Shown here one piece after another: positions 8,136 to 28,535 of a DNA stretch of 64,000 bases; within the stretch, counting starts at the first letter, position 1, and the number at the start of each line of letters is the position of its first letter. The DNA is from an uncultured Acidobacteriota bacterium. GTDB taxonomy: Bacteria > Acidobacteriota > Thermoanaerobaculia > Gp7-AA8. Location: positions 416,001 through 480,000 of the forward strand of contig CAWGHO010000002.1 of the NCBI GenBank assembly GCA_963822445.1. The letters run 5' to 3'. The position numbers and the translations under genes were made by a program. The notes under the pieces are model-generated. The model ran no database searches and had not been told where the DNA came from. It was given only the letters and a program-made list of their open reading frames with translations.

Positions 8136-9983
8136 TCACTGCGCGCGTCGTCGTTCGCTGCGCTCGATCGCAGCGACGTCGCGCGCCATTGCCACGCGCA
8201 ATGCGATCAACGGCGGCGTTCCCCAAACCTCCGCCGTCCGTTCCCATGAAACGAGGATCTCTTCGGCCGTGAGCTCGCTTCGAAAGCGACTTCGGAGATC
8301 CCGCTCCCGTCTCGCCGACGCGGCGGCACTCAGACCGGCGGCGTGGATGGCATCCGTCACCGTTTGCCATTCGGAAGATGAAACGCCGAGGCTCTGCGCC
8401 GCGATGACCGAGTCGGCGGCTTCGGACCAATGCTTTCGCGCAAGTTTTTGCCGCGCCAGCGGAATGTGGACGGCGGCCGAAACGGCGGCACTTTCCGGTT
8501 TTCCGCGTGCACGGGCGCTGAGCAGGCGGAGCGCGTCAGAGCCATCGGTCCAGCGTTGCGCGGACGCCGCTTCACGCGCCTTGGTGAGGATCAGTTGATC
8601 GATCGCATCCGTCGCCTCTCCGTACTGCGGAAGCTCGCGTGGAATCTGAGCGAGAGCGGTCCGCGCCGCCTCGAGCTCGGTGGCCTGCCGAATTCGGGCG
8701 AGCCGCAAATCGGCCCAGGAACGCCGCCCTGCACTGCCGCCCAGCGATTGCAGCTCCGACTCGGCATCGTCGAGCTTTCCCGCCGCGATCAGCCCATCGG
8801 CGCGACCGACGCGCGGAAGAGCGGCGAACGCAAATGCGATGGCGACGATGAGGGTCACCGTGATGGCGATGAACCACTTCCGCGTTTCCAGTCGCGACGC
8901 CGTCCAATCCGCGCTCGCGCGGTAAATCGAAGCTAAAGCGGCGCCGAACGCTACGAGACTGGCGAGCGTCGCCATGCTCCAGAAAAATGGGCCGCGCGCG
9001 AGTGATACCAGCACGATCACGCCGTAGATGGCGACCAGGACCAGAAGCAGAGCACGCAGGTTCGCGGCACGAATCACGAACAGAGCAGCCGCGGCCTCCC
9101 GCGGCGCGGAAAGGCGGCGCCCCGCGAACGCGACGGAGTCCTTCGCGGCGCCCACGCGATAGTGCACGGTATGCGTCGGTACGCGCGCAATTCGGAGCCT
9201 CTGCCGCTGCACTCGCTCACCGGACATCAATACGGGCTCGAGCACCTCCAGCCATTGCAACGGGATGTCGCCGAGATCGCTTGCGGCGAGGACATGCGGA
9301 CGTTCGAGATCGGCGATCACATGTGCGTCGCGCTCGATGATTTCGTTCACGGGGTTCTCCATCCACCCGAAACGCGACGCGAGCTGCTGCGGATGAACCG
9401 TCGGGATCGAGCGACGCCACCATTCGAGCTCGAGCCAGCGCTGCACGCGCCCCTCGCCCGCACAGATCGCGCAGACCGCCACGCCGCGGCGGCACTCCGC
9501 GCAATCGACAGCACCCTTGCCACGACACGCCGTGCAATTGAGCAGACGCCACGCGCCGTTCGCGGTGTAGCCATACGCCTTGCGTTCCCCGCCGCATGCA
9601 CCGCAGGTTCGTTTTCCGCTTCCGTCGCATGCTGCGCAACGGGTTTTCCCTGCACCCGCGCATGGATCGCAAAGAGCGACGTGATCACTCTGCTTTCGAA
9701 GCGAGGGCGCGTCGGCCACCCATGCGTCGACTTCCTCGGCAACGATCGGAGGCGGAAGTGTGATGCGAGCCCTGCCGGCGGCCGGTACCGATTTCCAGAC
9801 CACACGTTGTCCCCGCAAGTCCGTCTCGATCAGACCGATGTAATCGTGCGTCACCGCCACGTGCTCGAGGAGCGAACGCACGTCGCGCGGAGCGCCGTCC
9901 TGCAGCGATGCCCAGTGAACGAAGGCATCGCCTGCCATCTGATTTTCGCCGGCGGACAGGGGCGTCATCCCTGGCATAGACAC
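8136..9983 (-). CDS. Membrane protein with DnaJ-type CxxCxGxG zinc-finger repeats, ~3 TM helices and a helical (TPR-like) C-terminus
   Basis: CDPCAGAG, CAACDGSG, CGACGG, CTACRGKG, CAECRRG, CAICAGEG; hydrophobic segments in the middle third. Start may be ATG 9977. Confidence 0.7.
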   Translation of the reverse strand: MSMPGMTPLSAGENQMAGDAFVHWASLQDGAPRDVRSLLEHVAVTHDYIGLIETDLRGQRVVWKSVPAAGRARITLPPPIVAEEVDAWVADAPSLRKQSDHVALCDPCAGAGKTRCAACDGSGKRTCGACGGERKAYGYTANGAWRLLNCTACRGKGAVDCAECRRGVAVCAICAGEGRVQRWLELEWWRRSIPTVHPQQLASRFGWMENPVNEIIERDAHVIADLERPHVLAASDLGDIPLQWLEVLEPVLMSGERVQRQRLRIARVPTHTVHYRVGAAKDSVAFAGRRLSAPREAAAALFVIRAANLRALLLVLVAIYGVIVLVSLARGPFFWSMATLASLVAFGAALASIYRASADWTASRLETRKWFIAITVTLIVAIAFAFAALPRVGRADGLIAAGKLDDAESELQSLGGSAGRRSWADLRLARIRQATELEAARTALAQIPRELPQYGEATDAIDQLILTKAREAASAQRWTDGSDALRLLSARARGKPESAAVSAAVHIPLARQKLARKHWSEAADSVIAAQSLGVSSSEWQTVTDAIHAAGLSAAASARRERDLRSRFRSELTAEEILVSWERTAEVWGTPPLIALRVAMARDVAAIERSERRRAQ

Positions 9984-10010
9984 GGTTCCGATGGAATCGG
10001 CACCGTCGGA

Positions 10011-11229
10011 TCAGCGGCCGAATTTGAGGACCGGCGTCGTCCCCTCGGGCTCGCAGGTCTGTCGCTCCGCCAGTTCGACGCGGCCGGCGTCGTAGCGCAA
10101 ATTGGTCACGTTCCAGATGCGAAATGCGCAATCGGGGGAGGATTGAACGTCCGCACCTGACATCCCCGGGTGTAGACCTGCACCATTGCACCGGCGTCAG
10201 CGATCGTGCCGCTGCCTTGATAGACGTGAATGAAGTAGCGGAAGTCTCCCACCGCGTCGCCGCGCACCGTGAGTGTCTCGTAACGCCCGGGGTAGACCTC
10301 ATCGACATCGAGCCGGGCGAAGGTCCGACCGTTGGGCAACACGCCTTCCTTGTTCCGGAAATAGACAGTGTCGGCTGCCGGGAAGCGCGTTGCGTTCGAC
10401 TGCCAGAAATGCGTGTCGAGGTCACGTGGATCGTTGCGCCAGCCGAGAACGAAACGGGCGACTTCATCGTCCTTGAGGTCTGGAGAAAGAGGCAACGCCG
10501 CACGTGTAATCTTCCCGGGGCGCACTTCGAATTCACGTTCCGAGGGGCAGTACCCGGGCGCCTGCGCGGAGAAGCGATGCCGTCCCGGTGGCAAGTCGAC
10601 TGTGACGACGCGTCGCGGACTCGACGACAGAGAACGCGTACGATCCTTCACGATCGCGTCGACCGGCTCGGCCGCTCGCATGGCATTGAACGTTGCGATT
10701 TCCAGTCTGCCGAACGTCGGTTTCAGATCGACAGGAACGCGAACGCTCTGCAGCGCGGCCGCCTGCACCCGTGCGGTCCGCGGGTGGTAGCCGTCGAGAC
10801 GCGCCGTATAGCTGCCAGACCCGCTGTTGATGCGGCCGAGACGCGCAATGAACAGACCGCCGATGTGAGTGATCGGCACCGACATCGCCCGTCCGGTGGC
10901 GTCGTCCGTCACAGTGAGGCGGCGGGACGTGAGGTCGGCATCGAATACGCTGTCGCGCACCGCGAGATCGAGATACGCGGGCGGCGTCAGAAACCAGGGG
11001 ACGCTCAACAGGCCGAGCCCAGCCACGATCATCGAGCAGAGGAACGTGAGCGGTTTGCGCTCGTTCGGAATGGCTGCCATCGCAAATCCTAGCGTCGCCC
11101 CGATGACGGCGTCGAAGCGGCCGGCTTCACGAGCACGCGATGCGTCCACTGCAGGTCGATGAACGCAAAAAGCGTCAGCGCCAAACCAAAGAAGAAGAGC
11201 AGGAAGAGAAGGCGGGCCGCTCGGTTCAT
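10011..11229 (-). pseudogene. Membrane-anchored PEGA/carboxypeptidase-regulatory-like + YfaP (DUF2135)-like protein with two -1 frameshifts (pseudogene or sequencing error)
   Basis: The N-terminus MNRAARLLFLLFFFGLALTLFAF (ATG 11229) shifts frame near 11120 into ORF 10106..11368 (VLGWRNDPRDLDTH, ARLDVDE, FRYFIHVY, VQVY). A second shift at a G5 run near 10135 continues PDCAFRIWNV...LKFGR to a stop at 10011. Confidence 0.6.
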
Positions 11230-11231
11230 GA

Positions 11232-14200
11232 TCAGGCAACCTCCAACGGACTCTCGCACACCGAGCAACGTCCCCGCGGCTCGACGTTCGAATAGCAGAT
11301 CGAGCATTGCACGAGCGCCGCGATGGGAACGGGCATGGACTCGACGACGGTCGCCGTTCGCGACTCATCTTCCTGAGCCGCGACGCTGAGAATCGGCCCC
11401 TCGGCGATCGGCATCACTGGCCCGACCTTCGGGTCATACCCGCAATTGGGGCACGGATACTGATCCTCGTAACCACTCCAGGTGAAGCACTGCGGACAAT
11501 CGATCGTCTCGTCCTCACGCATCCGCAGGCCGCATTTCCAGCAGAGCTCGAGATCGTCGGGTACGCGCGATTCCTGGCAATGCGGACAGGCGACATGCGC
11601 GGCGATCATCTTCTGGCAATGGGTGCAGTGCACGGCGCGCCGATCGATCGGTTTCGCACACGACGGACAAGGACGATCGCCGAATTGCTTCTCGACCACG
11701 GCGACCGGAGCAGCAGGACGAAGAGGAGGCGTCACCACCTGCTCCCTGGCCGCGCTCTTGTCGATCCTGGTGATGTCGAGCGCGAAGATGTCGCGCCAGG
11801 CGATGGCCGTATGCACGACGGCGTCTTCCGTCCGCGTTGCGAACTTGCCCGCGGTCTTTGTATATGGCGCGAGCACATCGCGGTACTCCTCGTAGCTCAG
11901 GTCTTGCGCGAGATCCTTGTTAGTGAGCGTCCTGTATTGAGTGACGAACTGTTTCTGCTCGTCTGCCTCGCCCACGATCTGCGCCAGCCGCATGCGCGCT
12001 TGCGCCAGCACGGCATGCTCGGGCGAATACTGCATCATCGTCAGGTCGGGGATGCCGCTCTGATCGAGCTGGCGCGGCGGATAGACCTTCTTCAGGTAGA
12101 AGTCGAGGAGCAGCCGATAGACGGCGAGCTTTTTCTGTTCGCGCAGCATCTGGATGGTCTTCTCGATCTTCTGCAATAGGTACCGGCGATGCGTCAGGTG
12201 CTCGCTCCGCCGGTCGCGGTAGAGAAAGTCGACGGCATGGGCTTCACCGCCGAGGTTCACGTCTTCAGCAATCAGGTCGGTGAGATGCTGGTAGCTGAAG
12301 CGGAACGCCAACTGGTCTCCGTCCGACGGTAGAGGGTGCGTGGTCAGCAGTCCGAGCAGCCGTGCCAGCACGAACGCCGTCAGCGAATCGGCATACTGCT
12401 TCGCTTCGCCTGCCTGTTTCGGGATCAGATCCGCGAACTGAAAGCGGTTCTTGTCGGTGTGCAGCTCTTCTTTCTCGGCGAACGCGTTGTATGCCGCCCG
12501 CAGGCCGTGAGGGGCGGTGACGGAGCTGGGATAGAAGGCCGGAATGCCCGCCAGCTCGTGGTAGAAGACGATCGTGCCGCGGTGCTGCTCGCCGATGTTC
12601 TGATAGCTCGGCATGGTGTCACCGGGTGAACGGGCGCCGTCGACGAGGTGCTTGAATTCCGCGACTTTCTGCACGTTTCCGGCGTCGTCGAACCCGATCA
12701 GGCAGGGGCGCTGATCGGTGCTCACCGGCGCCAGCCCGGTGTGCTCCAGGCCGTGATCGCTCGGTGCGACCCACACCTTCGACAGGCGGTAGGCCTGCCG
12801 CACCATGTCGGTCCGCTCCCGCACGCTGAAACGGTTGCCGTCGAAGAGCATCGTCAAAGCGTCCGGTTGTCTCGGCTTCCGGACGATGAAGTCGCGGCAC
12901 TTGGACAGGATTTGTTCTTCGACTGTCTCCGAGGGCGTGCGCTGAATTTTCGCCAGCGCAGCGGTCACGCCGTCGACCTCGAAAACTTCGGCGAGGATCT
13001 GGCTGCCGACCATTTTCAGCGTCTGCGCTTCCGCGGCGGGCTCCCCGATCCAGGTCCGATACCACTCCTCCACGTCGCCATCGCGAAACAGGGTCAGCGT
13101 GAGCTCGGACTTCTCCGGTTTCGAGAAATAGGCATCCTTCTTCTGCAGATGCTCCTTGACGCGAGCGAAGCCAACCAGCAGCTCGTAATAACGGCCGAGC
13201 AGCCCGTCGCCGCCCTGGTGGTCGGGACCGAGGAACCGGTCGAGCTCATCGCAGATCTGCCGGCCGCGTTTGGCGATCTGCTTGCCGACACGCGCATGGA
13301 AATGGTTGTAGAAGACGCCGCGATCCTCGTCGCCATCGTCGGCCACGAGCTTTTCGTAATCGCGCTTGAGATCAGGCGAACGGAAGAGTAACTGTTCCTC
13401 GTGACGGGCCATGTCCAACTGCAACTGGTCGAGCGCGTAGGCGTAGTACTGCACGCGGTCACGCCATTGCGGAAGGCGTTCGTCGAAATAGTGCATGTAG
13501 CGGAAGTTCTCGTTGCGGAGAAGCGCCTTGAGCTCGCGGAGAAGCGAGAGCGTGTAATTGACGCCGTATTGAGGGTTGTCGGAGAGCTCGGCCGCTTTCG
13601 CTTCGATCCCGGTTTTCACCCGTTCCAGATACGTGCGCATGTTCGTGTCGAGGTGGCGCACGCCCATTCCCCACTCGTCGGGATTCTCGGAGTCTTCCCT
13701 GGCGAAGAACTGGTCGAGCTCCGCGCGGCGCTGGCTGAGAAGTGACGCTTTCTGACCGTTCGGCGTGTCCGCGAGCTCTGCGCGCAGGCTCTGAGCTTTC
13801 TGCCAGAGGTGACTCTCGAACGTGCGGCCACCGCCGGCATCGAAGACCGTCAGCGCATCTTCGATGTCGACATGCTCGATGATGCCCCCGCCGTCGCGGC
13901 GCTCATAACTGCCCTGCGCGCACTGCACGCGCTCGTCGGTCAGGAATTTGGTGAAGAGATGCTCGAGAGGATCGTCGACGATGCTCTTCTGCCAGTAATC
14001 GAGAATCTGCGAGGCCAGACGGCTCGCGCAGGCGGCCTGCACGCGCTCCGTCGGAAAGGAGATCGTGGCCAGGCCGAAGGAGCCGAAACGACAAGGGAAG
14101 GTATCGCCGACGATGTCTTTGTGCGTCGCGTCGCGGTCCTGGCGCAGCGCGACGTTGAGGAAGTTGTGCGTGTATACATTGAGATTGAACTGTTCGAGGT

Positions 14201-15182
14201 TGACGCGCGTCGCGCGCTTCATTCCGGCGAAGGCGCCGATCGAATAATCCTGGTACAGCACCTCGGCCACCATCCGATAGACGTCGAGCTCCTTGCCGCC
14301 CGAGCCGATGGCCAGTCCCGCTTCATTGCGTCCGTCGATCAGGTAGGTGCTGCTGAACGGCGGCGGCCCCATTTGCTCTTTTTGGTGGCCGGTCCAGTCG
14401 GCGGTGAACATGTGCGCGAACGTGTAATGGTTCAGCTCCATCAGTGCCGCGTAACCATTCGCGCGCACCCGCTCGGCGCCCGCGTAGGCGCTGAAGAAGC
14501 CGGGGAACAGCAGAATGCCGACGCGCTCCGCCGCAGGGAAATAGCGCCGGGCCAGAAACCCCGCGTCGAGAAAGGTCCCGCTGCCGGTTCCGCCGGCCAG
14601 CGAGGCGACGATGACCACCTTCATGTTCGAGGCGCTGAAGTCGAATCCGAATCGCGCCGCTTCGGCGAGGATGGCCGCGTCGGTCAGCTCGCGCCGGCAT
14701 TGCTCGAGCCGGCCGGTGATCTTCTGATGATTGGCGGCATCGAAGAATCCGAGACGGCTGGCGATGCGCACCTGGCCGGCCCCTTCGCGCAAATCGCCGA
14801 GGTGCGCGATTTTCCCGCCGGCCGGGAACCAGCGCTTGACGCTCGGAAAATTGTCGAGGTGCTCGACGTACTTTCCGGTACCTCCGGCGATGGTCAGATC
14901 GATGCGCTCGGTGTTGGAAAACTGCACTTCGCGATACAGAGGATCGTCGCTGCTGCGCAGGTCGTACTGCTCGGCCGCGGTCTGATTCTTGTCCGTATCG
15001 ATGTGCATGAAGCGGAGAAACGGCAGGCGCGACAGCGTGCCGTAACGCTCCACGATCTTGCGCCGCAGACGGAGCAGCACTTCCTTCCCCGTCCCGCCCA
15101 GGCCAATGAGCAGAGTCGGGCCGACCGGCTTGTCGTTGACCTGCGTCGAGGGAAGGCTGGTCTGCAGAAGTTCGAGGTTCAT
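11232..15182 (-). CDS. Tubulin-like (Tubulin_2 family) GTPase with long helical region and four C-terminal zinc ribbons
   Basis: TLLIGLGGTGKEV, FMHIDTD, GAGQVR, SLAGGTGSG, ANGYAALMEL. C-terminal ribbons: CPSC..CTHC, CPHC..CWKC, CPQC..CPNC, CSIC..CSVC. AGGAGA RBS. Confidence 0.85.
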   Translation of the reverse strand: MNLELLQTSLPSTQVNDKPVGPTLLIGLGGTGKEVLLRLRRKIVERYGTLSRLPFLRFMHIDTDKNQTAAEQYDLRSSDDPLYREVQFSNTERIDLTIAGGTGKYVEHLDNFPSVKRWFPAGGKIAHLGDLREGAGQVRIASRLGFFDAANHQKITGRLEQCRRELTDAAILAEAARFGFDFSASNMKVVIVASLAGGTGSGTFLDAGFLARRYFPAAERVGILLFPGFFSAYAGAERVRANGYAALMELNHYTFAHMFTADWTGHQKEQMGPPPFSSTYLIDGRNEAGLAIGSGGKELDVYRMVAEVLYQDYSIGAFAGMKRATRVNLEQFNLNVYTHNFLNVALRQDRDATHKDIVGDTFPCRFGSFGLATISFPTERVQAACASRLASQILDYWQKSIVDDPLEHLFTKFLTDERVQCAQGSYERRDGGGIIEHVDIEDALTVFDAGGGRTFESHLWQKAQSLRAELADTPNGQKASLLSQRRAELDQFFAREDSENPDEWGMGVRHLDTNMRTYLERVKTGIEAKAAELSDNPQYGVNYTLSLLRELKALLRNENFRYMHYFDERLPQWRDRVQYYAYALDQLQLDMARHEEQLLFRSPDLKRDYEKLVADDGDEDRGVFYNHFHARVGKQIAKRGRQICDELDRFLGPDHQGGDGLLGRYYELLVGFARVKEHLQKKDAYFSKPEKSELTLTLFRDGDVEEWYRTWIGEPAAEAQTLKMVGSQILAEVFEVDGVTAALAKIQRTPSETVEEQILSKCRDFIVRKPRQPDALTMLFDGNRFSVRERTDMVRQAYRLSKVWVAPSDHGLEHTGLAPVSTDQRPCLIGFDDAGNVQKVAEFKHLVDGARSPGDTMPSYQNIGEQHRGTIVFYHELAGIPAFYPSSVTAPHGLRAAYNAFAEKEELHTDKNRFQFADLIPKQAGEAKQYADSLTAFVLARLLGLLTTHPLPSDGDQLAFRFSYQHLTDLIAEDVNLGGEAHAVDFLYRDRRSEHLTHRRYLLQKIEKTIQMLREQKKLAVYRLLLDFYLKKVYPPRQLDQSGIPDLTMMQYSPEHAVLAQARMRLAQIVGEADEQKQFVTQYRTLTNKDLAQDLSYEEYRDVLAPYTKTAGKFATRTEDAVVHTAIAWRDIFALDITRIDKSAAREQVVTPPLRPAAPVAVVEKQFGDRPCPSCAKPIDRRAVHCTHCQKMIAAHVACPHCQESRVPDDLELCWKCGLRMREDETIDCPQCFTWSGYEDQYPCPNCGYDPKVGPVMPIAEGPILSVAAQEDESRTATVVESMPVPIAALVQCSICYSNVEPRGRCSVCESPLEVA

Positions 15183-15194
15183 TCGTTTTCTCCT

Positions 15195-15566: not shown

Positions 15567-15583
15567 GAGCGACTCCTTTCGAT

Positions 15584-17293: not shown

Positions 17294-18552
17294 TGTGCCG
17301 CTCCTTTCGAGACCAGCTCGCGGACTTCTACGATGCCGTCCCGGTTTCCGGCGGCGATGTACGACTCGAACGAAGCGAGCGCCGTGATGGCGGCACCGCT
17401 CTGGTCGCCGAGGCGCCACACCTCGTGGCGCGGCAGTTGGGCGAGGTTGTAGAGGAGAACGCGGCCGTCCTCCATCCCCACCGCGGCCGCGCAGCCCTGC
17501 ACGATGACGGGCGAGCCCTTGCTCGCGCGCTCATGGGGCGCGAACGAGTCGCGCACGCCGGTGCGCCAGAAAGCGATTCCGCGCGTGTCGATGCCGACGC
17601 CGTCGCGGTCCCAGTCATCGGCGCCGTCGCGTGTCAGCGCAAAGAGCTGCGTGTCTTCGTCGAGCGGTTCCTCGATCGCCCCCGTGGCCGCGTTGATCCG
17701 GTAAAGCCGGTGCGCATCGCCGAAAATACCGAAGATCGTGCCGCCCAGGAGAGCGATGGGATGGTCTGTCAGCGAGTGCAGGGCAACGGCATGCGTCGCG
17801 AGGCCGTCACTCATCACGTGCAATCGCACGCGGCCGTCTTCCTCAGACAGAAATACCGCGCGCGAGCTCGAAGGATCGGCAGCCACCCAACTCATTTTCG
17901 GAGCGCCATGAATCGAGCGAACGCTGCCTTGCTCGATGACCTGAACCTCGCGCCAGTCGGCCGTGGCGACGGTCACGTAAAGGCGATCGCCGACCGCTGT
18001 GAGCGCATGAATCGGCGTTCCGCTCAGCGTCACGTGCCAAAGAGGACGGATGCGCGGCGTTTCGAGCACCAACGCCGCCAATGCGTAGGCACTCAGTTGG
18101 CCGCGCGTTGCGAGATAGAGCACTCCGTCGCTGATGCATGGCTCCGCCGTGACTGGTCCCTGCGTCTGAAAGCGGCAGACGCTCTTCGCGCGCAACGGAT
18201 CGGCGACCTCGACGACGCCGTTGAGAGAGATCGCGATGAGGTGGCCGTCATAACCGAGAAGGCTCCGGCAGCTATCGCCGAGGCGGAGGCGCAGGTCGGT
18301 CGCGCGGGTGGTGCAGTCATGGGCGGCGGCGGACGACGCATTCGCGCTCAGGCGTCGCGGCCCGCCTCTGTACCCGGCCCAATTCGCGGCCAGCGGCGAC
18401 AATGCGGTTCCGCAACCTCGGCAAAAGACGGCAAACGAGCGGTTGCGCGACGCGCAGCGCGAACATCGCTTCACGTAACCGCCGCAAAGACAGCGGGGGG
18501 CATCCGTGGCGAGCTCGGACACACAGTCAGGTTGCGAATAAGGGCAAGTCAC
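17290..18552 (-). CDS. Zinc-ribbon + PQQ/WD-like beta-propeller protein
   Basis: N-terminal CPY..C, CLC, CSRC..FCRGC; WAGYRGGPRR (PQQ-like start); GPVTAEPCISDGVLYLATRG; IAAGNRDGIVEV. Confidence 0.65.
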   Translation of the reverse strand: MTCPYSQPDCVSELATDAPRCLCGGYVKRCSRCASRNRSFAVFCRGCGTALSPLAANWAGYRGGPRRLSANASSAAAHDCTTRATDLRLRLGDSCRSLLGYDGHLIAISLNGVVEVADPLRAKSVCRFQTQGPVTAEPCISDGVLYLATRGQLSAYALAALVLETPRIRPLWHVTLSGTPIHALTAVGDRLYVTVATADWREVQVIEQGSVRSIHGAPKMSWVAADPSSSRAVFLSEEDGRVRLHVMSDGLATHAVALHSLTDHPIALLGGTIFGIFGDAHRLYRINAATGAIEEPLDEDTQLFALTRDGADDWDRDGVGIDTRGIAFWRTGVRDSFAPHERASKGSPVIVQGCAAAVGMEDGRVLLYNLAQLPRHEVWRLGDQSGAAITALASFESYIAAGNRDGIVEVRELVSKGAAQ

Positions 18553-18561
18553 ACTCGGTCC

Positions 18562-19515
18562 TCACCGACTCCGGTTGACGATCACCTCGGGTTGTCGAAG
18601 GACCTGCTGTCCTTCGATGAACCCGTTTCGAATCACACCGGTAATGACACCGTCCGCGACGCGGGGGTCATTCGTGGTGGAGCGGCCGATGTGGCGTGCG
18701 CTGTCGAACAGCGTCTCCCCGAGCGTCACTTCGATCGGCTCGACGGCGGCGATGCGCAGTAGCTGGCGCACGAGATCCACGCCGTTCTGCAGCTCATCCG
18801 GACGCTGCTCGAGCTGCGCCTGCTGATAGCGCTGGAGATACAGGTCCGCAAACGGGAGGAACGATTCAGTGACCCAGCTCTGGAATCGGAACGCGAAGCG
18901 GCTTGCGTCGGAAGTGAGCAGCCCCGCCAGCTCGCGCGTGCGGCGTACCTCCTCCGCATCCGTTTCGAGGCGTGGAAACTTGCCGCTGATGATGCGCGGG
19001 ATGAATCCGATGCGCTGAATGACCGTGCGATGCTCGCGGCACGGCCCGATCACGCCGTCGAACGTCGGCCTCAGATCGGAGGGCACGACCTGCGTCAGCT
19101 CATCGAGAATCCCCTGCCACGCGTTGTCGTGCGTCGCGCTCTCGAATGCAGCACTCAGCTCCTTGTTCGCGCAGAACTGGTTCCACTCCGCGCCCAGGAT
19201 CTGGTGCTCGAGCGCGACGGCGTCGGTCGACACGGGCGGCCTCGCGGCAATTTGCTCGACGATGCGAAGGACGCCGGTCACTTCCGCGCGCAGAAGGGCG
19301 AGCTCGTTCGCGATCGGATCCAGTTGCTCGACAGTAAGGACATTCGCCTTATTTACTTTCTCGTCGAGAACATCGATCACAGCATTCAGCCGCTTCGCTG
19401 CGTCCGTTTCTTCGAGCACGGCGCGCCTGCGTCGGAACAGAAGAAACACGAGCAGCACCACCGCGATCAGCGACAGCGCAGCGCAGGCGACGATCAACAT
19501 GGTCTGAATGGTCAT
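18562..19515 (-). CDS. Membrane-anchored GrpE-like protein
   Basis: N-terminal TM, coiled coil, C-terminal GETLFDSARH...GVITGVIRNGF...VLRQPEVIV (GrpE beta-domain signature FDP..H / V..GY / LRPA.V.V); ATGA overlap. Confidence 0.72.
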   Translation of the reverse strand: MTIQTMLIVACAALSLIAVVLLVFLLFRRRRAVLEETDAAKRLNAVIDVLDEKVNKANVLTVEQLDPIANELALLRAEVTGVLRIVEQIAARPPVSTDAVALEHQILGAEWNQFCANKELSAAFESATHDNAWQGILDELTQVVPSDLRPTFDGVIGPCREHRTVIQRIGFIPRIISGKFPRLETDAEEVRRTRELAGLLTSDASRFAFRFQSWVTESFLPFADLYLQRYQQAQLEQRPDELQNGVDLVRQLLRIAAVEPIEVTLGETLFDSARHIGRSTTNDPRVADGVITGVIRNGFIEGQQVLRQPEVIVNRSR

Positions 19516-20939
19516 CTCACCACCTCCAACTCCTGGGTGAACTGCGTGCGCGCCACGACGACGTCGTGCGGCATGCGCGCTTCGACGGTGCCGTGCAGGC
19601 GATGGCCGGCATTGCTGCACCGCAGATGGACGGTCAGGCGCAACGCGGCCTCGCCATCCAGCTTCATGGGTATCGCGCAGAGCGTCGTGTTGCCTTCGGG
19701 CGCGCGGTCGGCACCCCACAACAGATGCAGGAGGAACGACTGGCCGGCACGGCTGTCACCCCCGAGCCGGAAATCGGTGTCCACACGACACGCCTCGCCG
19801 GCCTCGGGAAGTTGCGCCTGCGGCAGCAACTCCATCGCCTCGCCTCGCATCGTGTTCACGCGCAATGTGCCACTCGGCGCGAGAACGACGCGCGAGCGCA
19901 TCGCCGACGCGACATCGCGCAGCGGGTCGACCGCCGGCGCGGCCCGCGACATGAATGCGCTGCGCACCGCGCCGATCCCGAAGATCTCCCCCGCAAAAAT
20001 CGTCGGCAGATCTTCCGCACCCAGTACCGTGAGCGTCTCGCGCAAACGCTGCGAGAGATCATGCGTCGTGATCCACGCACCATCGAGCGCTGAATCCACT
20101 GCCGCATGTGCAAGTCGATCAGGCAGCGAGTCAGGCGAGCCGGTCAACAGCGAAGTCAGCGTGCGCTCGAAGGCGGCACTCGGCGTCACGTGCAACGCTT
20201 CGGCGATGCGCGCGCTCCAGTGATTCCATCCGCGACCCGCAAGCGTCACGGAAGCTGTCGTGCGAAGACGAGGTTCGTCCGCTTTGCCGTCGATCGTGAC
20301 GCGATGAATGTGAAGATCAGTCTCCGACGTCTCGATGACCACGCATTCGCATGGGGCCTTGTCGACGAGCGCCATCGCCGCGGCGAGCTCCCGGCGGACG
20401 ACAAACGGCGATCGGAAGCCGCGCCGCCGAAACAACTTGTGCAGCACCAGCCGCGCATGCCGTCCGGTTTGCGCCGGCAGGATCACGATCGGGTCGATCT
20501 CCTGCGGGGCGTGCTGCCGCTCGAGAACGAACGCGAACGTCGGATCGAGCAATGCGTCGAGCATCGTCAGCGCGACGCGGGGCAAAAGGCCATCGACCGC
20601 GAGATCAGCGAGCGCCTCCGGCGTCGAAAGCACCGTCAGTGGAGAGGAAAGCTGCAACGCCACGGCGGATGCCTGCGGATCCCACGGTCGACGCACGCCG
20701 ATGCGCCGGGCGCGCAGAAAGAAACTGCGCGCGTCCGTTTTCGCGAGCGCCTCGACCGCGTCCTCCCACAGAAAATCGCGATCCTCGACGACACGCGGCT
20801 CGAAAAGGATGTCTGTCGACACGTTCCGGACCGCGACCTGGCGAATCTCCTGGCTGCACGGCACGAGCTCCCCGTCCTCGGTCACCAACAACGCGGAGAG
20901 AACGCGGCCGCCCAGATCGACGATCAGTTGCGGTCTCAT
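19512..20939 (-). CDS. Degenerate Hsp70/actin-fold protein (probably catalytically inactive)
   Basis: Colinear relics of Hsp70 motifs: LIVDLGG, ILPAQTG, RELAAAMA, VVIETSETDL (DxGGGT lost), AGRGWN, IFAGE; ATG 20939 overlaps the Hsp70 stop. Confidence 0.55.
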   Translation of the reverse strand: MRPQLIVDLGGRVLSALLVTEDGELVPCSQEIRQVAVRNVSTDILFEPRVVEDRDFLWEDAVEALAKTDARSFFLRARRIGVRRPWDPQASAVALQLSSPLTVLSTPEALADLAVDGLLPRVALTMLDALLDPTFAFVLERQHAPQEIDPIVILPAQTGRHARLVLHKLFRRRGFRSPFVVRRELAAAMALVDKAPCECVVIETSETDLHIHRVTIDGKADEPRLRTTASVTLAGRGWNHWSARIAEALHVTPSAAFERTLTSLLTGSPDSLPDRLAHAAVDSALDGAWITTHDLSQRLRETLTVLGAEDLPTIFAGEIFGIGAVRSAFMSRAAPAVDPLRDVASAMRSRVVLAPSGTLRVNTMRGEAMELLPQAQLPEAGEACRVDTDFRLGGDSRAGQSFLLHLLWGADRAPEGNTTLCAIPMKLDGEAALRLTVHLRCSNAGHRLHGTVEARMPHDVVVARTQFTQELEVVR

Positions 20940-23770
20940 CCCATCCAACTCTCTTCCTCGTGCAGCCGCGCCGGCTCGATCGTGACCGGGCTGCCATTGG
21001 CGAACACGCGCAACGTGCGATTCGCGCCGATGGCGAACGTGACGTCGCAACCCGGCCTGCCGGCGGTGTCGATCGAAATCTGGCCGATCAGGCTGACGTG
21101 CGGATTGCCGACGATGGCCTTTCCGGTGCCGGTGTTCTGGTAGAACTTGAGATTGAGGTAGCCGCCGGGCGGGATCATCTCCGCCGGATACGGCTTGGTC
21201 GCTTCGACCGGATACCGCGCGCCGCGCGCGATCACTTCGTCGAACTCGGGCTCGACCGGATTGGTGAACGTTTCGACGCCGTAGCTGTGCGGCAGGCGCC
21301 GTCCGTCGCTGAGCAGCAGGATCCGCGCTTTCGGGTCGACCAGTCGATCGCGCATCGAGCCGTACAGCGCGGCGCCTTTGGCGACGCACACTTTCAGGTG
21401 CTGCTCTTCGAGGAGATCGCGGTCGTCGCCGAGGCCGGGAAACATCGCTCGAACGCAGCGGCGGATCTGCGGCAGCAAACTCTGGCGGCCCGTGTGAAGG
21501 ATGAAGTCGATCTCGTTCGCATCGACTTCCGCGAGCGCGAGCGATGCGCGAATCAACTCCTCGGATCGTGCCAGGACCGGCTGAAGGAGATTGCCTGCCG
21601 CCTCGGCAGATAAAGGCGGAATCTTCACGCCGCGACGCGCCTGCTCGATCCTGCCGCCGTTGATGCGCACGAGCAGGTCGGGATGGATGTCGGTCGACGA
21701 CTGCTTCTTGTCCGCCATCCGGATCTTGGCCTGCTCGGCGAGGTCTTTCCATTGCGCGCGGACGCGCAGCAGCTCGCGCCAGACCTCGGCGCTCCACCCT
21801 TCGCGATCGCAGCGGCGCTGAAAATCGGTGAAGTTGCCGGCGATCAGAGTCGTATCGAGCTCGAACGCGGTCAGCTCCTGCTTGCAACGTCGGAGCAGCT
21901 CCTTCATCACGAGCACGTCGATGTGATCGCCGCCGATGTCGTTGTCGCCGAGGTTGGCGAGAATGCGCAGACCGGTGCCGCCGGTCTTCACCTGAGTTAC
22001 GCCGGCGACGGCAACGTCGAGCGTACCGCCGCCATGATCGAAAACGAGCAGCTTCAGTCCCTGCTCGCGAGCGATCGCGCTGGTGATTTCCGAGGAGCTG
22101 CGGGTTCTGCGAAGGAAGTCGAGGTAATAGAGAACCGCGGCCGACGGCTCGTCGAGGATGATTCCGGCGTTGACGCTCGCGCCGACGTCCTCGCTCTGTC
22201 GCGCTTCGACACGCTGGGCGCGCTCCTCCTCGGTATCGAGACCCGCACCGGCGCACGCTTCCAGCACGTCACGGATCTGAAGGTCATGAAAGTTGGCCGG
22301 GACGGTGATGATCGCCTTGCGGACGTTGTATTGCGCTCCGTTGCCGGAGTCGGCATGCAGCTTGTCCTCGGCGAACTGGACGAGCTTGCGGATGATCATC
22401 GAGGCCAGCTCGGCGGCCGAATAGGAGCGATCGAAGAAGGTGCGATCCCGCTCGTAACCCATCACCCGCTTGATCGACCGCACCGTGCGATCGGGCGCGG
22501 TGTCGGCTTCGTTACGCGCGGACTCGCCGATCTTGTACGTGTCGGGATCATCGAACACGAGCACGCTCGGAATGAGCTCCTTGCCCGAGGATTCGTCCTT
22601 CACCAGCGCCAGGCCACTCTTGTCGCGCGGACTGAGCACGGCCACGACGGAGTTCGTGGTGCCGAAGTCGATCCCGATGTAGTCCGCGTACTCCTTCGGC
22701 TTCACGACCGTGAGCTCGACCGGCAGAACCAGCGGCTCCTGCGCGTGCGGACGGATGATTACGCTGCCGCGATGCTTCCCTTCGGCCAGCTCGCGCGGCG
22801 AGCAGATCACCCGGAAATCGAAGGAGCGCAGGAACATCGTCGGAGAGACGGTCTTTCGGGCGGCCGATTCCGAGCACAGGAGGGTGAACCTGGACGCGCG
22901 CGCGACGACGTTGATCCATGGCGCGTCGCTTTCGATCGAGAGGATTTCCACGTCGGTCGTTCCATGGTTCTCGAGACGAACCGACGTCGCGTAGTCGCGC
23001 TTCGCCAGCGCTCGAGAGAAACGCAACGCGGCCGGATCGAGCTGCAGTCGATAGCGGAACATCTGGGCAGTGATCGGAACGACGACAACGCCGGCGTGAT
23101 TGGCGAAGTCGATCCGGACGTTCCCCTCGCCCATCGCTTGTCCGCCCGCCGCCGTCTGCCACACGACCGGTATCGACAGCGTCTCGTCTCGTCTGATCAG
23201 CCGGCCGTCGAACTCCCCTCGCACGCTCAATTGCGGCGAACCGGCGGCGCGCACAGTGGCCACGCGCAACGGAATGCTGCCGGTGTTCGCCAGTTCCAGC
23301 AGCCGTTCGGCCGACTTCCCTTCCTCGACGTGCTCGAAGTCCAGCGCCGGAGTGAGCAACTTCGGCATGGGCCCGGAACGGAGATCGATCTGCAGCGGCC
23401 GCTGTTTGCGCGTATCGCCGTCGACGACGCAGATGTATTCGGCGACCCGCTGAAATCCAGCCGGAAGCTTTTGCGCGTCGAGCGTCACGCGCACGCGCAG
23501 TTCGGAGCTCGCTGCGATCTCAACTCCACTCCCGGGATCGAACATCAGACCCGGGATGGCAGAACCGGCCCGGGGCTCGATCGAGACCCGTATCGCTCGC
23601 GGTCCGCCGTTGCGCAGACACAGCTCTCTGGACGGCGCAATGGATGTGATCAGCACGAGCGTCTCGGGCTCGATCTCCAGGAACAGCAACAGCTTCCCGC
23701 AGAAGCTGCAATACGCGTCGTCGGGACCGGGCTCCCACTGATGACAGTAACGGCACTCGGTCCGGCTCAT
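20936..23770 (-). CDS. Hsp70-family protein with N-terminal zinc ribbon and Ig-like (PapD/ASH-type) domains
   Basis: CRYC..YCSFC; LRNGG/LANTG/LENHG Ig-like repeats; YIGIDFGTTNS, ITVPANF, LDEPSAA, FDHGGGTLDV, GGDHID, AEQAK, VAKGAA; short substrate-binding domain with no lid. Confidence 0.88.
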   Translation of the reverse strand: MSRTECRYCHQWEPGPDDAYCSFCGKLLLFLEIEPETLVLITSIAPSRELCLRNGGPRAIRVSIEPRAGSAIPGLMFDPGSGVEIAASSELRVRVTLDAQKLPAGFQRVAEYICVVDGDTRKQRPLQIDLRSGPMPKLLTPALDFEHVEEGKSAERLLELANTGSIPLRVATVRAAGSPQLSVRGEFDGRLIRRDETLSIPVVWQTAAGGQAMGEGNVRIDFANHAGVVVVPITAQMFRYRLQLDPAALRFSRALAKRDYATSVRLENHGTTDVEILSIESDAPWINVVARASRFTLLCSESAARKTVSPTMFLRSFDFRVICSPRELAEGKHRGSVIIRPHAQEPLVLPVELTVVKPKEYADYIGIDFGTTNSVVAVLSPRDKSGLALVKDESSGKELIPSVLVFDDPDTYKIGESARNEADTAPDRTVRSIKRVMGYERDRTFFDRSYSAAELASMIIRKLVQFAEDKLHADSGNGAQYNVRKAIITVPANFHDLQIRDVLEACAGAGLDTEEERAQRVEARQSEDVGASVNAGIILDEPSAAVLYYLDFLRRTRSSSEITSAIAREQGLKLLVFDHGGGTLDVAVAGVTQVKTGGTGLRILANLGDNDIGGDHIDVLVMKELLRRCKQELTAFELDTTLIAGNFTDFQRRCDREGWSAEVWRELLRVRAQWKDLAEQAKIRMADKKQSSTDIHPDLLVRINGGRIEQARRGVKIPPLSAEAAGNLLQPVLARSEELIRASLALAEVDANEIDFILHTGRQSLLPQIRRCVRAMFPGLGDDRDLLEEQHLKVCVAKGAALYGSMRDRLVDPKARILLLSDGRRLPHSYGVETFTNPVEPEFDEVIARGARYPVEATKPYPAEMIPPGGYLNLKFYQNTGTGKAIVGNPHVSLIGQISIDTAGRPGCDVTFAIGANRTLRVFANGSPVTIEPARLHEEESWMG

Positions 23771-25391: not shown

Positions 25392-25401
25392 GTCGAGTAC
25401 C

Positions 25402-27042: not shown

Positions 27043-27078
27043 GTGAACTTTCTCGCGATGACGGGAAAGACACGGACG

Positions 27079-28488: not shown

Positions 28489-28535
28489 ATCGAAGAAGAC
28501 ACGGCGAAGCGGAACTCGGGTGTGACACGCGGCGT

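Follow-up and report, generated by a model that had tools for sequence, protein, structure and literature searches.

We describe a private Hsp70-GrpE module from an uncultured Acidobacteriota bacterium, which we read as a core part of an envelope-spanning tubulin/vWA set that is probably a conflict system rather than a housekeeping one. The module is encoded within a 64,000-nucleotide stretch of DNA, referred to here as the window, and its three members are an Ig-domain Hsp70 (Ig-Hsp70), a degenerate Hsp70 copy, and a GrpE-like protein (Table 1). To our knowledge, dedicated non-housekeeping Hsp70 systems of bacteria are almost unstudied, and we know of no experimental work on the FtsZl1 tubulin family, whose gene lies in the same string. 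The closest descriptions, the DO-GTPase conflict systems and the FtsZl1-vWA operons, are computational only.

Table 1. Genes of the chaperone cassette and its surroundings in the window
Feature	Coordinates	Strand	Description
TPR-CHAT protease, caspase-like protease, 379-aa unknown protein, second CHAT protease	29090..39579	-	
Lineage-specific upstream genes	24660..29288	-	Glycine-zipper lipoprotein, Ser/Thr kinase, secreted vWA with C-terminal TM, coiled-coil lipoprotein
Tail-anchored protein	23770..24663	-	β-rich, possibly Ig-like, domains; stop overlaps Hsp70 start by one base
Ig-Hsp70	20936..23770	-	944 aa; Zn ribbon, three Ig-like domains, Hsp70 NBD, linker, SBDβ; without lid
Catalytically dead Hsp70 paralogue	19512..20939	-	475 aa; NBD and SBDβ; phosphate-2 glycine loop lost
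GrpE-like protein	18562..19515	-	317 aa; N-terminal membrane anchor, coiled coil, family-specific helical domain, GrpE-type C-terminus
Zn ribbon and β-propeller-like protein	17290..18552	-	Core member; Zn_Ribbon_1 E 0.0026
vWA-TM protein	15584..17293	-	Signal peptide, vWA-like domain (DNSGS MIDAS motif), TM, Pro-rich tail
Small multi-pass membrane protein	15195..15764	-	True start probably ATG near 15569
FtsZl1-type tubulin-like GTPase	11232..15182	-	AGGTGSG; long helical region; C-terminal zinc ribbons
Membrane protein with CarboxypepD_reg-like domain	10106..11368	-	Last conserved cassette gene; start uncertain
Six-CxxC (CR-type-like) membrane protein	8136..9983	-	Assigned to downstream His-Xaa-Ser module

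Results

An Hsp70 with intact ATPase motifs and a degenerate copy

A sequence-only reading of this DNA had built a membrane-tethered DnaK/GrpE/DnaJ-like set from four open reading frames, all of which lie on the minus strand with the boundaries it gave. The largest had been described as an Hsp70 with intact ATPase motifs fused to a Zn ribbon and Ig-like domains, and that description holds. Pfam HSP70 (PF00012) matches it at E 9.2e-33 (113.8 bits, cut-off 20.6), 118 distinct PDB sequences are hit at E<=0.001, and DnaK is its best solved relative (4rtf_D, E 5.6e-21). Over the NBD, linker and SBDβ, residues 365-924 match the intact DnaK that this genome encodes (25% identity, E 5e-27). The linker (ILLLSD...LPHSYGVET) and SBDβ can be followed as far as residue 924, and because the chain stops 20 residues later, at 944, it lacks the helical lid (SBDα). 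The ATPase motifs line up with those of the same DnaK; GIDFGTT, K434, E541, and D578-GGGT-x-D585, which we take from DnaK to be the phosphate-1 motif, the catalytic Lys and Glu, and the phosphate-2 motif DxGGGTxD, are all invariant among 10 orthologues, as are the Zn-ribbon cysteines C6, C9, C21, and C24, and D[YH]GGGTxD is kept in 20/20 diverse homologues. The Ig-like matches are weak (PF22544, E 3.3e-4; NCBIfam choice-of-anchor D, E 9.8e-5), and the C-terminal tail is a conserved acidic-Trp segment (EEESWMG). With every ATPase motif kept, Ig-Hsp70 is predicted to be the active partner of the module.

The adjoining protein had been called a degenerate Hsp70, a family that sequence alone fails to recognize. 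Neither Pfam, NCBIfam, nor a phmmer search of PDB sequences gave a match; its family profile gets to DnaK only at E ~0.1, and hhalign comparison with the Ig-Hsp70 family returned probabilities of 0.05 and 0.6. The fold is borne out by a confident AF2 model (pLDDT 90.4, pTM 0.91), in which an NBD of four subdomains is followed by an SBDβ sandwich. Foldseek matches this model to Hsp70 NBD and SBDβ (E 1.9e-17, ~550 aligned columns to DnaK), and VIA aligns it with the HSP72 NBD (Z 18.5 over 295 residues) and, along residues 2-471, with residues 2-505 of DnaK 7kru_B (Z 18.4, 405 residues aligned). In the register taken from the family-profile alignment to DnaK, the phosphate-2 region reads VVIETSETDLHIHRV, and GG occurs there in 0/39 family members; the glycine-rich phosphate loop is gone. 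Also among the structural matches are a RAC chain (7x3k_B, Z 18.3) and an Hsp110 chain (3c7n_A, Z 17.6).

A membrane-anchored GrpE-like protein without a J-domain partner

The third protein begins with a hydrophobic segment (residues 5-26) followed by RRRR. A longer open reading frame for its gene (18562-19719) was rejected, as homologues begin at the ATG at 19515. Membership in the GrpE family is marginal at the level of sequence: Pfam GrpE (PF01025) matches at E 5.5e-6, with 26.6 bits against a cut-off of 25.8, over profile positions 64-164 of 165. The same profile is matched at E<=0.01 by 29 of 30 homologues, and hhalign of the family against 11 canonical GrpE proteins of relatives gave a probability of 76.7 and E 2.1e-5 over 85 columns, in which P, D, G, FD, H, and G positions are common to both. 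A search of PDB sequences with the family profile found no GrpE. With the structural model (pLDDT 80.7), the top Foldseek matches are GrpE chains (9a81_A, 9.3e-4, probability 1.00; 1dkg_A, 7.4e-3), which occupy ranks 1-5 and 10 among the 15 matches listed up to rank 19, at low TM-scores of 0.19-0.26 by query; the VIA matches are mostly generic helices. Since the NCBIfam GrpE equivalogs reach only 17-19 bits against cut-offs of 137-184, the protein is not an orthologue of the housekeeping GrpE. What had been proposed, a TM-anchored GrpE-like protein, is upheld by the N-terminal anchor together with the GrpE-type C-terminus found by Pfam, profile-profile, and fold comparison. Three loci carry two GrpE-like paralogues (L063, L174, and L166, the last also with a dead Hsp70), and those of L063 have long extracytoplasmic N-terminal regions before the TM segment.

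DnaJ acts on Hsp70 through its J-domain. The sequence-only reading had seen none with an HPD motif in these proteins, and an HMM made from the genome's 6 J-domains agrees: across the window and 49 related loci it detected no J-domain, with E 0.72 at best as against 1.2e-29 for the positive control. The 6 matches themselves all fall outside the window. The genome has a separate grpE-dnaK-dnaJ locus outside the window, on contig C1, where the dnaK beside grpE and dnaJ is in six pieces in three frames, and a second, intact canonical Hsp70 on contig C3. The module is therefore extra to the housekeeping chaperones.

Gene coupling, partners and distribution

The stop of the Ig-Hsp70 gene overlaps the start of the dead Hsp70 gene, and the stop of the latter that of the GrpE-like gene, each as ATGA. 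Altogether, six consecutive genes from 24663 to 15584 are joined by 4-base (ATGA, GTGA) or 1-base overlaps or a 9-nt gap. The three chaperone genes keep their order in all 9 other genomes with a dead Hsp70, and the Zn-ribbon/β-propeller, vWA-TM, small-TM, and FtsZl1-tubulin genes follow them (9/9). Of 33 metagenome loci, 31 are long enough to tell whether the dead Hsp70 comes after Ig-Hsp70, which it does in 24; the GrpE-like gene is present in 24/27, and tubulin in 16/16 of those reaching far enough. The dead Hsp70 is missing from L063, L167, and L174, where GrpE-like genes come directly after Hsp70. In L063, a locus of another phylum, from a Deltaproteobacteria MAG (37% identity), Ig-Hsp70, both GrpE-like copies, and the Zn-ribbon/β-propeller, vWA-TM, small-TM, and tubulin genes form the core; the 10 kb upstream hold no proteases or kinase, and metabolic genes surround it. 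The co-occurrence check came out in favor of the set of three chaperone genes, which recurs with tubulin and vWA genes in 9/9 genomes and most of the 33 loci.

Several partners were characterized further. The tail-anchored β-rich protein precedes Hsp70 in 23/28 metagenome loci and in 8 genomes and has marginal similarity to the third Ig-like domain of Hsp70 (E 0.01). The Zn-ribbon/β-propeller gene is kept in 9/9 genomes and 20/22 metagenome loci; as an Atlas lead only, its product resembles PQQ-type propellers (0.88). The vWA-TM gene, whose GTG start at 17293 overlaps the preceding stop, is kept in 9/9 genomes and 17/18 loci, and its product has no Pfam match. Homologue matches to the small-TM protein start at residues 36-90 in several loci. 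The tubulin-like protein is matched by Pfam Tubulin_2 (7.1e-62) and DZR (4.6e-6), and the CarboxypepD_reg-like gene comes after it in 8 same-family genomes; in the distant genome G651 the contig stops ~1 kb past the tubulin gene. Upstream, the Ser/Thr kinase has HRDVKPSN and DFG motifs (Pkinase, 1.6e-47), Pfam VWA_2 matches at 1e-9, and the secreted vWA protein carries DCSKS; among metagenome loci, the kinase is present in 18/21 and vWA1 in 16/18. The protease region matches Pfam CHAT (1e-74 and 8.1e-52) and Peptidase_C14 (9.7e-24), its caspase-like protein has a signal peptide and DUF4384, and CHAT/caspase protease genes are also near the cassette in relatives. Of the 23 proteins predicted between 2490 and 39579, 22 have no Walker A motif; in the other, the second CHAT protein, the single short match (residue 10) is outside any GTPase domain. 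The Pfam and NCBIfam results include no GTPase family and, for the cassette, no nuclease or RNA-binding domain. No PADLOC model matches the chaperone genes or the cassette core.

The cassette is found in only 10/401 genomes of the class, in 4/24 other genomes of the genus, and in 0/400 other genomes of a phylum-wide draw. Both in the window and in L063 it is flanked by ordinary metabolic genes rather than by a defence island. Fusions to TIR_2 and HATPase_c_4 occur among close Hsp70 relatives (50-62% identity), and a lone Hsp70 relative adjoins DUF4391, DNA methylase, and AAA_21 ATPase genes.

A six-CxxC protein of a His-Xaa-Ser module

The fourth open reading frame had been read as a TM protein with six DnaJ-type CxxC motifs, and as a member of the operon and the chaperone set. 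Its motifs and TM segments are real: six CxxC motifs (residues 105-174) account for all 12 cysteines, 4/6 have the form CxxCxGxG repeated in CR-type (DnaJ/BSD2) zinc fingers, and three hydrophobic segments follow. DnaJ likeness at the profile level was not found. No Pfam family, DnaJ included, matches at E<=0.01, DnaJ_CXXCXGXG is not reported even at E<=10, and the weak matches are to BSD2_CRD (E 0.93) and to BSD2 chains in the PDB (E 4.9-5.2). As Atlas leads only, the nearest clusters bear names or families of CR type (BSD2_CRD 13%, DnaJ_CXXCXGXG 55% at a score of 0.88). The protein departs from CR-type zinc fingers in its motif count (six against four), its three TM segments and long helical C-terminus, its lack of a J-domain, and its genomic partner, the His-Xaa-Ser radical-SAM module.

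Membership in the set fails on distribution. The gene was found in only 4/10 cassette genomes and occurs in 3 genomes without a dead Hsp70 (G425, G529, and G681), and in 7/7 genomes it is directly upstream of HxsA-HxsD-radical SAM genes. It adjoins the cassette here and in G717; in G573 the two are on different contigs, and the cassette contig extends 8 kb further without it. The six-CxxC protein goes with the His-Xaa-Ser radical-SAM module, outside the Hsp70 set. Parting the two averts a wrong DnaJ-like assignment and suggests that peptide-maturation loci of the His-Xaa-Ser type may have one more component.

Discussion

The idea of a dedicated Hsp70 set is therefore supported, by gene overlaps and linkage, for Ig-Hsp70, the dead Hsp70, and the membrane-anchored GrpE-like protein with tubulin and vWA genes, and unsupported for the DnaJ-like member. 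Ig-Hsp70 would be the active, lidless partner of this private module, and the dead copy, which is predicted to keep the NBD and SBDβ fold and not the ATP-phosphate loop, may be a non-hydrolysing partner or adaptor. The GrpE-type nucleotide-exchange factor, which presumably has an inner-membrane anchor and is otherwise mostly cytoplasmic, would reset the active Hsp70 at the membrane, and the Hsp70 cycle would remodel or gate a tubulin/vWA assembly; that Hsp70 assembles or gates tubulin or vWA parts is suggested by gene linkage. This lineage adds lipoproteins, a kinase, another secreted vWA protein, and proteases of the caspase and CHAT types to the set.

As in the DnaK-GrpE-DnaJ cycle, the module has an Hsp70 NBD with intact catalytic motifs, a hydrophobic linker, and SBDβ, and its GrpE-like protein shares with canonical GrpE the C-terminal helices and a β-domain keeping the LP..D, G, FD, H, and G positions. 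However, the lid is absent, there is no J-domain protein in the cassette or the 49 related loci, a Zn ribbon and Ig-like domains precede the Hsp70, a dead paralogue is encoded between the hsp70 and grpE-like genes, and the GrpE-like protein is membrane-anchored with an extra helical domain. Ssz1, of the ribosome-associated complex, and Hsp110/Sse1 are non-hydrolysing Hsp70 partners of eukaryotes. The dead copy is similarly a divergent Hsp70-fold protein encoded beside an active Hsp70, its presumed partner; in contrast to Ssz1 and Hsp110, it is bacterial, lidless, and without detectable sequence relation.

Some resemblance is also seen to the Hsp70-like NBD/SBD units (CnuD) of Type III CoCoNuT restriction systems, whose motifs are described as degenerate (Bell et al. 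2024, eLife 13:RP94800, PMC11090510). By description, the features in common are NBD/SBD units that have no lid, degeneration of nucleotide motifs, and a place in operons predicted to serve defence; some CoCoNuT operons carry vWA, kinase, and glycine-zipper genes alongside. In the portions of that paper drawn on here, however, CnuD is linked to McrBC-type GTPases and HEPN RNases, and McrB, McrC, and HEPN were not found in the cassette.

The GAP1-N2-type DO-GTPase systems, predicted by comparative genomics only (Kaur, Burroughs, Iyer, Aravind 2020, eLife 9:e52696, PMC7159879), are closer in their parts. Hsp70 with GrpE and tubulin are among the themes proposed there for conflict systems; as far as the cited sections go, the tubulin, HSP70/GrpE, and kinase themes are non-overlapping, always accompany a DO-GTPase and GAP1, and occur mainly in Actinobacteria and Firmicutes. 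Shared with the present cassette are a dedicated Hsp70, a GrpE, and (there in a subset) a second Hsp70-type gene, as well as a membrane-proximal setting with β-sandwich repeats, vWA, tubulin, and kinase components. Here, by contrast, a single gene string unites all three themes, and a convincing Walker A motif, as in DO-GTPases (TRAFAC P-loop proteins), is absent from all 23 predicted proteins. It is the Hsp70 that carries the β-sandwich repeats, GrpE is TM-anchored, and there is no DnaJ-fused repeat protein; SBDβ is retained in the second Hsp70, whereas the version described in that part of the paper has no peptide-binding domain.

With the FtsZl1 (Tubulin_2)-vWA-kinase operons, which Makarova and Koonin (2010, Biol Direct 5:33, PMC2875224) read as membrane remodelling and not defence in the sections consulted, the cassette shares, by Pfam and motifs, Tubulin_2, a Ser/Thr kinase, vWA proteins with intact DxSxS MIDAS motifs and signal/TM segments, and many lineage-specific membrane proteins. 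The GTPase and OmpA-family partners that those sections describe as frequent were not found here, and the words Hsp70 and DnaK have 0 occurrences in that paper.

A conflict flavor is suggested by the patchy distribution, the CHAT and caspase genes in the gene string, the TIR-fused Hsp70 relatives, the methylase/AAA neighborhood of the lone relative, and the themes of Kaur et al. (2020), and the whole gene set would more likely be a conflict (defence or cell-death) than a housekeeping system. The same module and partners may nevertheless belong to housekeeping-type machinery for the cytoskeleton or for membrane remodelling (vesicles, envelope structures), with the Hsp70 set only an assembly chaperone. 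We regard this as the less likely course, albeit one of some weight: it is what was proposed for the FtsZl1-vWA-kinase operons in the sections cited above (PMC2875224), the cassette proteins are mostly membrane or periplasmic, the L063 core stands among metabolic genes with neither proteases nor kinase in its upstream 10 kb, and PADLOC is empty for the core. It sits poorly with a presence so patchy even inside one genus (4/24 others), and with the proteases, the TIR fusions, and the methylase/AAA setting just named.

Other explanations concern the chaperones themselves. The Hsp70-like proteins could be nucleic-acid- or ligand-binding sensors or effectors instead of chaperones, as proposed for the lidless units of CnuD, which are poor hydrolysers with degenerate motifs and for which Bell et al. 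(2024, PMC11090510) predict RNA binding in the part cited; both Hsp70s lack a lid, one lacks the ATP loop, and the Zn ribbon could bind nucleic acid. This seems improbable to us, as the catalytic motifs of Ig-Hsp70 are all kept in the 20 diverse members, a GrpE-type exchange factor, present in 24/27 loci, is sensible only with a working nucleotide cycle, and the cassette has no nuclease or RNA-binding domain. That the six-CxxC membrane protein substitutes for DnaJ, bringing clients to Ig-Hsp70 via a DnaJ-type zinc-finger domain, is more improbable still and, from its distribution, largely refuted: not found in 6/10 cassette genomes, carried by 3 genomes that have no dead Hsp70, followed by HxsA in 7/7, and placed on a contig apart from the cassette's in G573, it also has neither a profile match nor a J-domain. 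These points outweigh the placement of its 12 cysteines in six CxxC (four CxxCxGxG), the CR-type Atlas leads, its position beside the cassette here and in G717, and the DnaJ-cysteine-rich-like domain noted as fused to GTPases in the cited sections on FtsZl1 operons (PMC2875224). Ordinary stress-chaperone paralogues backing up the general DnaK system, which the fragmented dnaK of C1 might call for, are scarcely credible in view of the intact Hsp70 on C3 and the absence of the module from most relatives; moreover, the Zn-ribbon, Ig-like, and TM-anchor fusions, the missing lid, and the strict tubulin/vWA linkage ill suit a general chaperone.

Within the preferred reading of a private module in a conflict system, a more specific and rather doubtful possibility is that the GrpE-like protein is a transmembrane transducer. 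An event sensed outside the cytoplasm would switch on nucleotide exchange on a J-protein-independent Hsp70 while the dead Hsp70 holds the client, and FtsZl1 polymerisation and activation of the secreted caspase/CHAT proteases would thereby be licensed. This proposal leans on the L063-type relatives, with their large extracytoplasmic domain and two GrpE-like copies. If true, bacteria would have an immune or cell-death switch based on the cytoskeleton, with Hsp70 in the place that a DO-GTPase takes in the described systems.

The module is unusual in several respects: its Hsp70 is apparently without a J-protein, its nucleotide-exchange factor is fixed in the membrane, the pairing of Hsp70 with a dead paralogue is a design otherwise known from the eukaryotic RAC and Hsp110, and gene linkage couples it to a tubulin-like GTPase and vWA proteins. 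Hsp70/GrpE and tubulin themes can thus occur together without the GTPase, which alters which component counts as the switch. As a compact and conserved gene set, the module offers a testable case of a dedicated bacterial Hsp70.

Gene organization

The chaperone-like genes form part of a long string of genes on the minus strand of the window, which is listed below in 5' to 3' order along that strand. Six consecutive genes, running from 24663 to 15584, are coupled by 4-base (ATGA or GTGA) or 1-base stop/start overlaps or by a 9-nt spacing. No operon or island boundary was indicated by the promoter, terminator, and tRNA scans, which gave no promoter-like sites, 11 terminator-like sites versus 13.6 expected, and no tRNA genes. 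PADLOC matches were limited to the kinase, caspase, TPR-CHAT, and coiled-coil proteins.

Genes of the minus-strand string and the share of sufficiently long metagenome loci in which their products were found
Product	Window coordinates	Strand	Metagenome loci
CHAT protease	35971-39579	-	
Unknown protein, 379 aa	34910-36049	-	
Caspase-like protease with signal peptide	32224-34437	-	
TPR-CHAT	29090-32227	-	14/17
Coiled-coil lipoprotein	28536-29288	-	
Secreted vWA with C-terminal TM (upstream vWA)	27079-28488	-	16/18
Ser/Thr kinase	25402-27042	-	18/21
Glycine-zipper lipoprotein	24660-25676	-	
Tail-anchored β-rich protein	23770-24663	-	23/28
Zn-ribbon/Ig-like Hsp70 (Ig-Hsp70)	20936-23770	-	
Dead ("degenerate") Hsp70	19512-20939	-	24/31
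GrpE-like protein	18562-19515	-	24/27
Zn-ribbon/β-propeller-like protein	17290-18552	-	20/22
vWA-like TM protein (vWA-TM)	15584-17293	-	17/18
Small TM protein	15195-15764	-	
Tubulin_2 (FtsZl1) protein, E 7.1e-62	11232-15182	-	16/16
TM/CarboxypepD_reg protein	10106-11368	-	
CxxC protein	8136-9983	-	
HxsA-like	7085-8125	-	
HxsD	6753-7250	-	
Radical SAM enzymes (two)	5311-6756 and 4160-5359	-	
FG-GAP protein	2490-4295	-	

Most of the partner proteins also carry TM segments, signal peptides, or lipoboxes. In the caspase-like protease, the surroundings of the catalytic His and Cys are retained (SGHG and DACHSG); with its clear signal peptide, the enzyme would function beyond the cytoplasm, whereas the Hsp70 and tubulin are cytoplasmic. 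The BLASTP match between the tail-anchored protein and Ig-Hsp70 (E 0.01 over 53 residues) is too weak for a common domain to be called. The FG-GAP/β-propeller gene is located after the Hxs module in the window, and in relatives its position is between the cassette's CHAT and caspase genes, on the other strand (L012:13675-15390; L021:767-2398; L023:4068-5795).

The Hsp70 and GrpE-like proteins

Ig-Hsp70 had been described from the sequence as an Hsp70 with intact ATPase motifs fused to a Zn ribbon and Ig-like domains, and this description is correct. The protein matches Pfam HSP70 (E 9.2e-33), has DnaK as its best solved relatives, and aligns through residues 365-924 to the NBD, linker, and SBDβ of the genome's own intact DnaK (25% identity, E 5e-27); as the chain ends 20 residues past SBDβ, there is no helical lid. 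Ten orthologues show no variation in the catalytic motifs or in the four cysteines of the Zn ribbon, and D[YH]GGGTxD is present in 20/20 homologues with identities down to 34%. The Ig-like calls are weak in the protein itself (PF22544, E 3.3e-4; choice-of-anchor D, E 9.8e-5), and many homologues have PF22544, PF07610, or PF15780 on record. One homologue, at 37% identity, is listed under the name of Desulfonema magnum, a cultivable organism.

The C-terminal tail of Ig-Hsp70 (last 12 codons, window 20939-20975) is acidic, with a W-x-G end (EEESWMG) whose Trp is conserved in all 20 diverse homologues. The EEVD tail docks eukaryotic Hsp70 to TPR proteins; by analogy, EEESWMG may recall this tail, and the genes upstream of Ig-Hsp70 include one for a TPR-CHAT protease. 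Relatives with 50-62% identity over the NBD and SBDβ (L171:1635-5225; also L162, L170, and L172) have TIR_2 and HATPase_c_4 in place of the Zn-ribbon/Ig front end and stand alone, without genes for a GrpE-like protein, a dead Hsp70, or a tubulin. The region L175:7766-14605 holds a lone Zn-ribbon Hsp70 (39% identity) and, after it, genes for DUF4391, an N6/N4 DNA methylase, and an AAA_21/AAA_15 ATPase; a further AAA_15 ATPase is encoded upstream, and the neighbourhood looks restriction- or defence-like.

The dead Hsp70 has no match in Pfam, NCBIfam, or PDB sequences. The profile of its 39-sequence family comes no closer to DnaK than E about 0.1, albeit in the correct register, and hhalign against the Ig-Hsp70 family found nothing (probabilities 0.05 and 0.6, with one alignment pairing lobe I with lobe II). 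AlphaFold2 modelled the protein with confidence (pLDDT 90.4, pTM 0.91), and the model matches Hsp70 over both domains, with a Foldseek E of 1.9e-17 over about 550 aligned columns and VIA Z scores of 18.5 to the HSP72 NBD (295 residues, rmsd 4.2) and 18.4 to DnaK 7kru_B (405 residues, model 2-471). As sequence methods fail and the predicted structure matches Hsp70, the label "degenerate Hsp70" is right, on structural grounds only. The position of DnaK DLGGGTFD is occupied by VxETSETDLHxHRV in this family, and none of the 39 members has GG at the phosphate-loop position. A complex prediction pairing the Ig-Hsp70 NBD (residues 358-822) with the dead Hsp70 returned a score of 0.00 (mark 0.32) and no verdict.

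The GrpE-like gene encodes a 317-aa form that starts at 19515, the point at which its homologues begin. A hydrophobic stretch (residues 5-26) precedes RRRR, so that the positive-inside rule predicts a cytoplasmic location for most of the protein. It scores 26.6 bits to Pfam GrpE (cut-off 25.8), a family matched by 29/30 of its homologues at E<=0.01, and comparison by hhalign with 11 canonical GrpE sequences of related genomes gave a probability of 76.7 (E 2.1e-5, 85 columns), with LP..D, G, FD, H, and G as common positions. The best Foldseek matches of the model (pLDDT 80.7) are GrpE chains; in VIA, generic long-helix matches to residues 31-96 fill the list, which does not inform the C-terminal domain. 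Scores to the NCBIfam GrpE equivalogs are far under the cut-offs, the family profile found no GrpE among PDB sequences at E<=1, and the genome has a housekeeping GrpE at another locus. We take the protein to carry a divergent GrpE-type domain and not to be a housekeeping GrpE orthologue. Some relatives have two tandem GrpE-like paralogues (L063:12810-16943; L174:4754-7407; L166:13373-15330), and in each of the L063 pair the TM segment comes after a long extracytoplasmic N-terminal region, an arrangement that would suit an exchange factor also working as a sensor.

Linkage and distribution

The dead-Hsp70 profile matched 10/401 genomes of the class (one being that of the window), 4/24 other genomes of the genus, and 0/400 other genomes in a phylum-wide draw; the denominators take in two non-matching genomes flagged as unpublished (G541 in the class count, G024 in the phylum draw). 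The family is small (91 clusters in a collection of 5.8 billion proteins; 59 representatives in one of 1.84 billion), and its named members are labelled Thermoanaerobaculia or Acidobacteriota. In all nine other genomes the cassette keeps the order Ig-Hsp70, dead Hsp70, GrpE-like, Zn-ribbon/propeller, vWA-TM, small TM, tubulin, and the full order is kept even in G651, a distant genome from another family (38% identity).

A further 33 metagenome loci were gathered with a family-specific C-terminal alignment (A6), and counts were made only over loci long enough (table); they are not independent, because near-duplicates come from different samples (L148/L149, L154/L155, L150/L151). The dead Hsp70 and the GrpE-like protein thus co-occur with Ig-Hsp70 elsewhere. 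The dead Hsp70 is absent from L167 and L174, which have GrpE-like genes, from loci with N-terminally different Hsp70 variants (L162, L163, L168, L171), and from L175 with its lone Zn-ribbon Hsp70. Contig-size matching paired 53/60 dead-Hsp70 clusters on contigs of at least 10 kb with an Ig-Hsp70 or GrpE-like cluster, a proxy that misses known shared contigs and is not relied on.

When the full-length Hsp70 alignment (A5) was used to query genome contigs, generic Hsp70s dominated, and a full-length relative was found in 1/80 loci. This locus, L063, comes from a Deltaproteobacteria MAG and encodes Ig-Hsp70 (37% identity), two GrpE-like paralogues (648 and 705 aa), and the Zn-ribbon/propeller, vWA-TM, small TM, and tubulin proteins; the 10 kb upstream contain metabolic genes. 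Both GrpE-like paralogues start with a signal-like N-terminus, continue for about 230-290 residues to a TM segment and a coiled coil, and finish in a GrpE-like end; they match the GrpE-like profile (A2) at 8.4e-48 and 1e-43. The dead Hsp70 is absent from L063 (profile A1, E 0.07). Therefore, the conserved core consists of Hsp70, TM-GrpE-like, propeller, vWA-TM, small TM, and FtsZl1 proteins, and the dead Hsp70, the kinase, and the proteases are lineage additions.

The CxxC protein

All 12 cysteines of the CxxC protein lie within six CxxC motifs, four of which are CxxCxGxG. The motifs noticed in the sequence are real; a DnaJ-type finger has no profile support, and the Atlas gives leads to CR-type clusters and no more. 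The observation that these proteins contain no J-domain was borne out: all six J-domain matches in the genome are outside the window, and an HMM built from them had no hit either in the window or among 49 related loci (best E 0.72), a search that picked up the dnaJ of a control region at 1.2e-29 and that a very divergent J-like domain could escape.

The CxxC protein is found in 4/10 cassette genomes and, at full length, in 7/401 genomes of the class, three of which are without the dead Hsp70. In 7/7 genomes its gene is directly followed by those for HxsA-like, HxsD, and two radical SAM/SPASM proteins (window 4160-9983, minus strand; L014, L030, L031, L057-L059). In G573, the cassette and the CxxC-Hxs unit are on separate contigs, and that of the cassette continues for 8 kb past the last cassette gene without the unit. 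Because distribution separates the two, we assign the CxxC protein to the His-Xaa-Ser module and not to the Hsp70 set; it may be an extra, undescribed component of His-Xaa-Ser peptide-maturation loci.

Elsewhere in the genome, the dnaK between grpE and dnaJ (G000:C1:1369179-1370963) is broken into six fragments across three frames, which reflects either a pseudogene or a series of local errors in the assembly. The genome also encodes an intact canonical Hsp70, at G000:C3:585961-587631.

Discussion

The sequence-only reading proposed a dedicated, membrane-tethered Hsp70/GrpE/DnaJ-like machine. Conserved linkage upholds the Hsp70/dead-Hsp70/GrpE-like part of this proposal, whereas distribution removes the DnaJ-like member. 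An intact ATPase that comes with an exchange factor of its own speaks for a functional nucleotide cycle, in which the GrpE-like protein would promote exchange. This cycle would be located at the inner membrane, given the membrane anchor of the GrpE-like protein and the tail anchor of the β-rich protein encoded upstream. Owing to strict gene linkage, the tubulin and vWA-TM proteins are the most likely clients or co-workers of Hsp70.

Literature searches found no paper on this exact set, and only Kaur et al. 2020, Makarova 2010, and Bell et al. 2024 were relevant. In Kaur et al. 2020 (PMC7159879), an HSP70+GrpE theme, with a subset containing a second HSP70 without the peptide-binding domain, is described alongside tubulin+vWA and kinase+vWA themes; the three are called non-overlapping and occur within GAP1-N2 DO-GTPase systems, mainly of Actinobacteria and Firmicutes. 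In contrast to that description, the Hsp70/GrpE, tubulin, and kinase themes are combined here, a convincing P-loop is found in no cassette protein, Hsp70 has β-sandwich repeats fused to it, SBDβ is retained in the second Hsp70, and GrpE is membrane-anchored. Other lidless, degenerate Hsp70 NBD/SBD units appear in the account of CoCoNuT systems in Bell et al. 2024 (PMC11090510). The set is of a kind predicted by computation, here in a variation in which the themes are combined and no convincing P-loop GTPase is found in the cassette.

As to its role, membrane remodelling, which is how Makarova and Koonin read FtsZl1-vWA operons (PMC2875224), is kept alive by the lack of any PADLOC match to the chaperone, tubulin, or vWA genes and by the ordinary neighbours of the cassette, both in the window and in L063. 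A conflict system is suggested by the patchy distribution, by the CHAT and caspase genes within the same gene string, by the fusion of close Hsp70 relatives to TIR_2 and HATPase_c_4, and by the lone Hsp70 relative that adjoins DUF4391, a DNA methylase, and AAA_21 ATPases. We therefore favour a role in conflict over one in housekeeping for this Hsp70 set.
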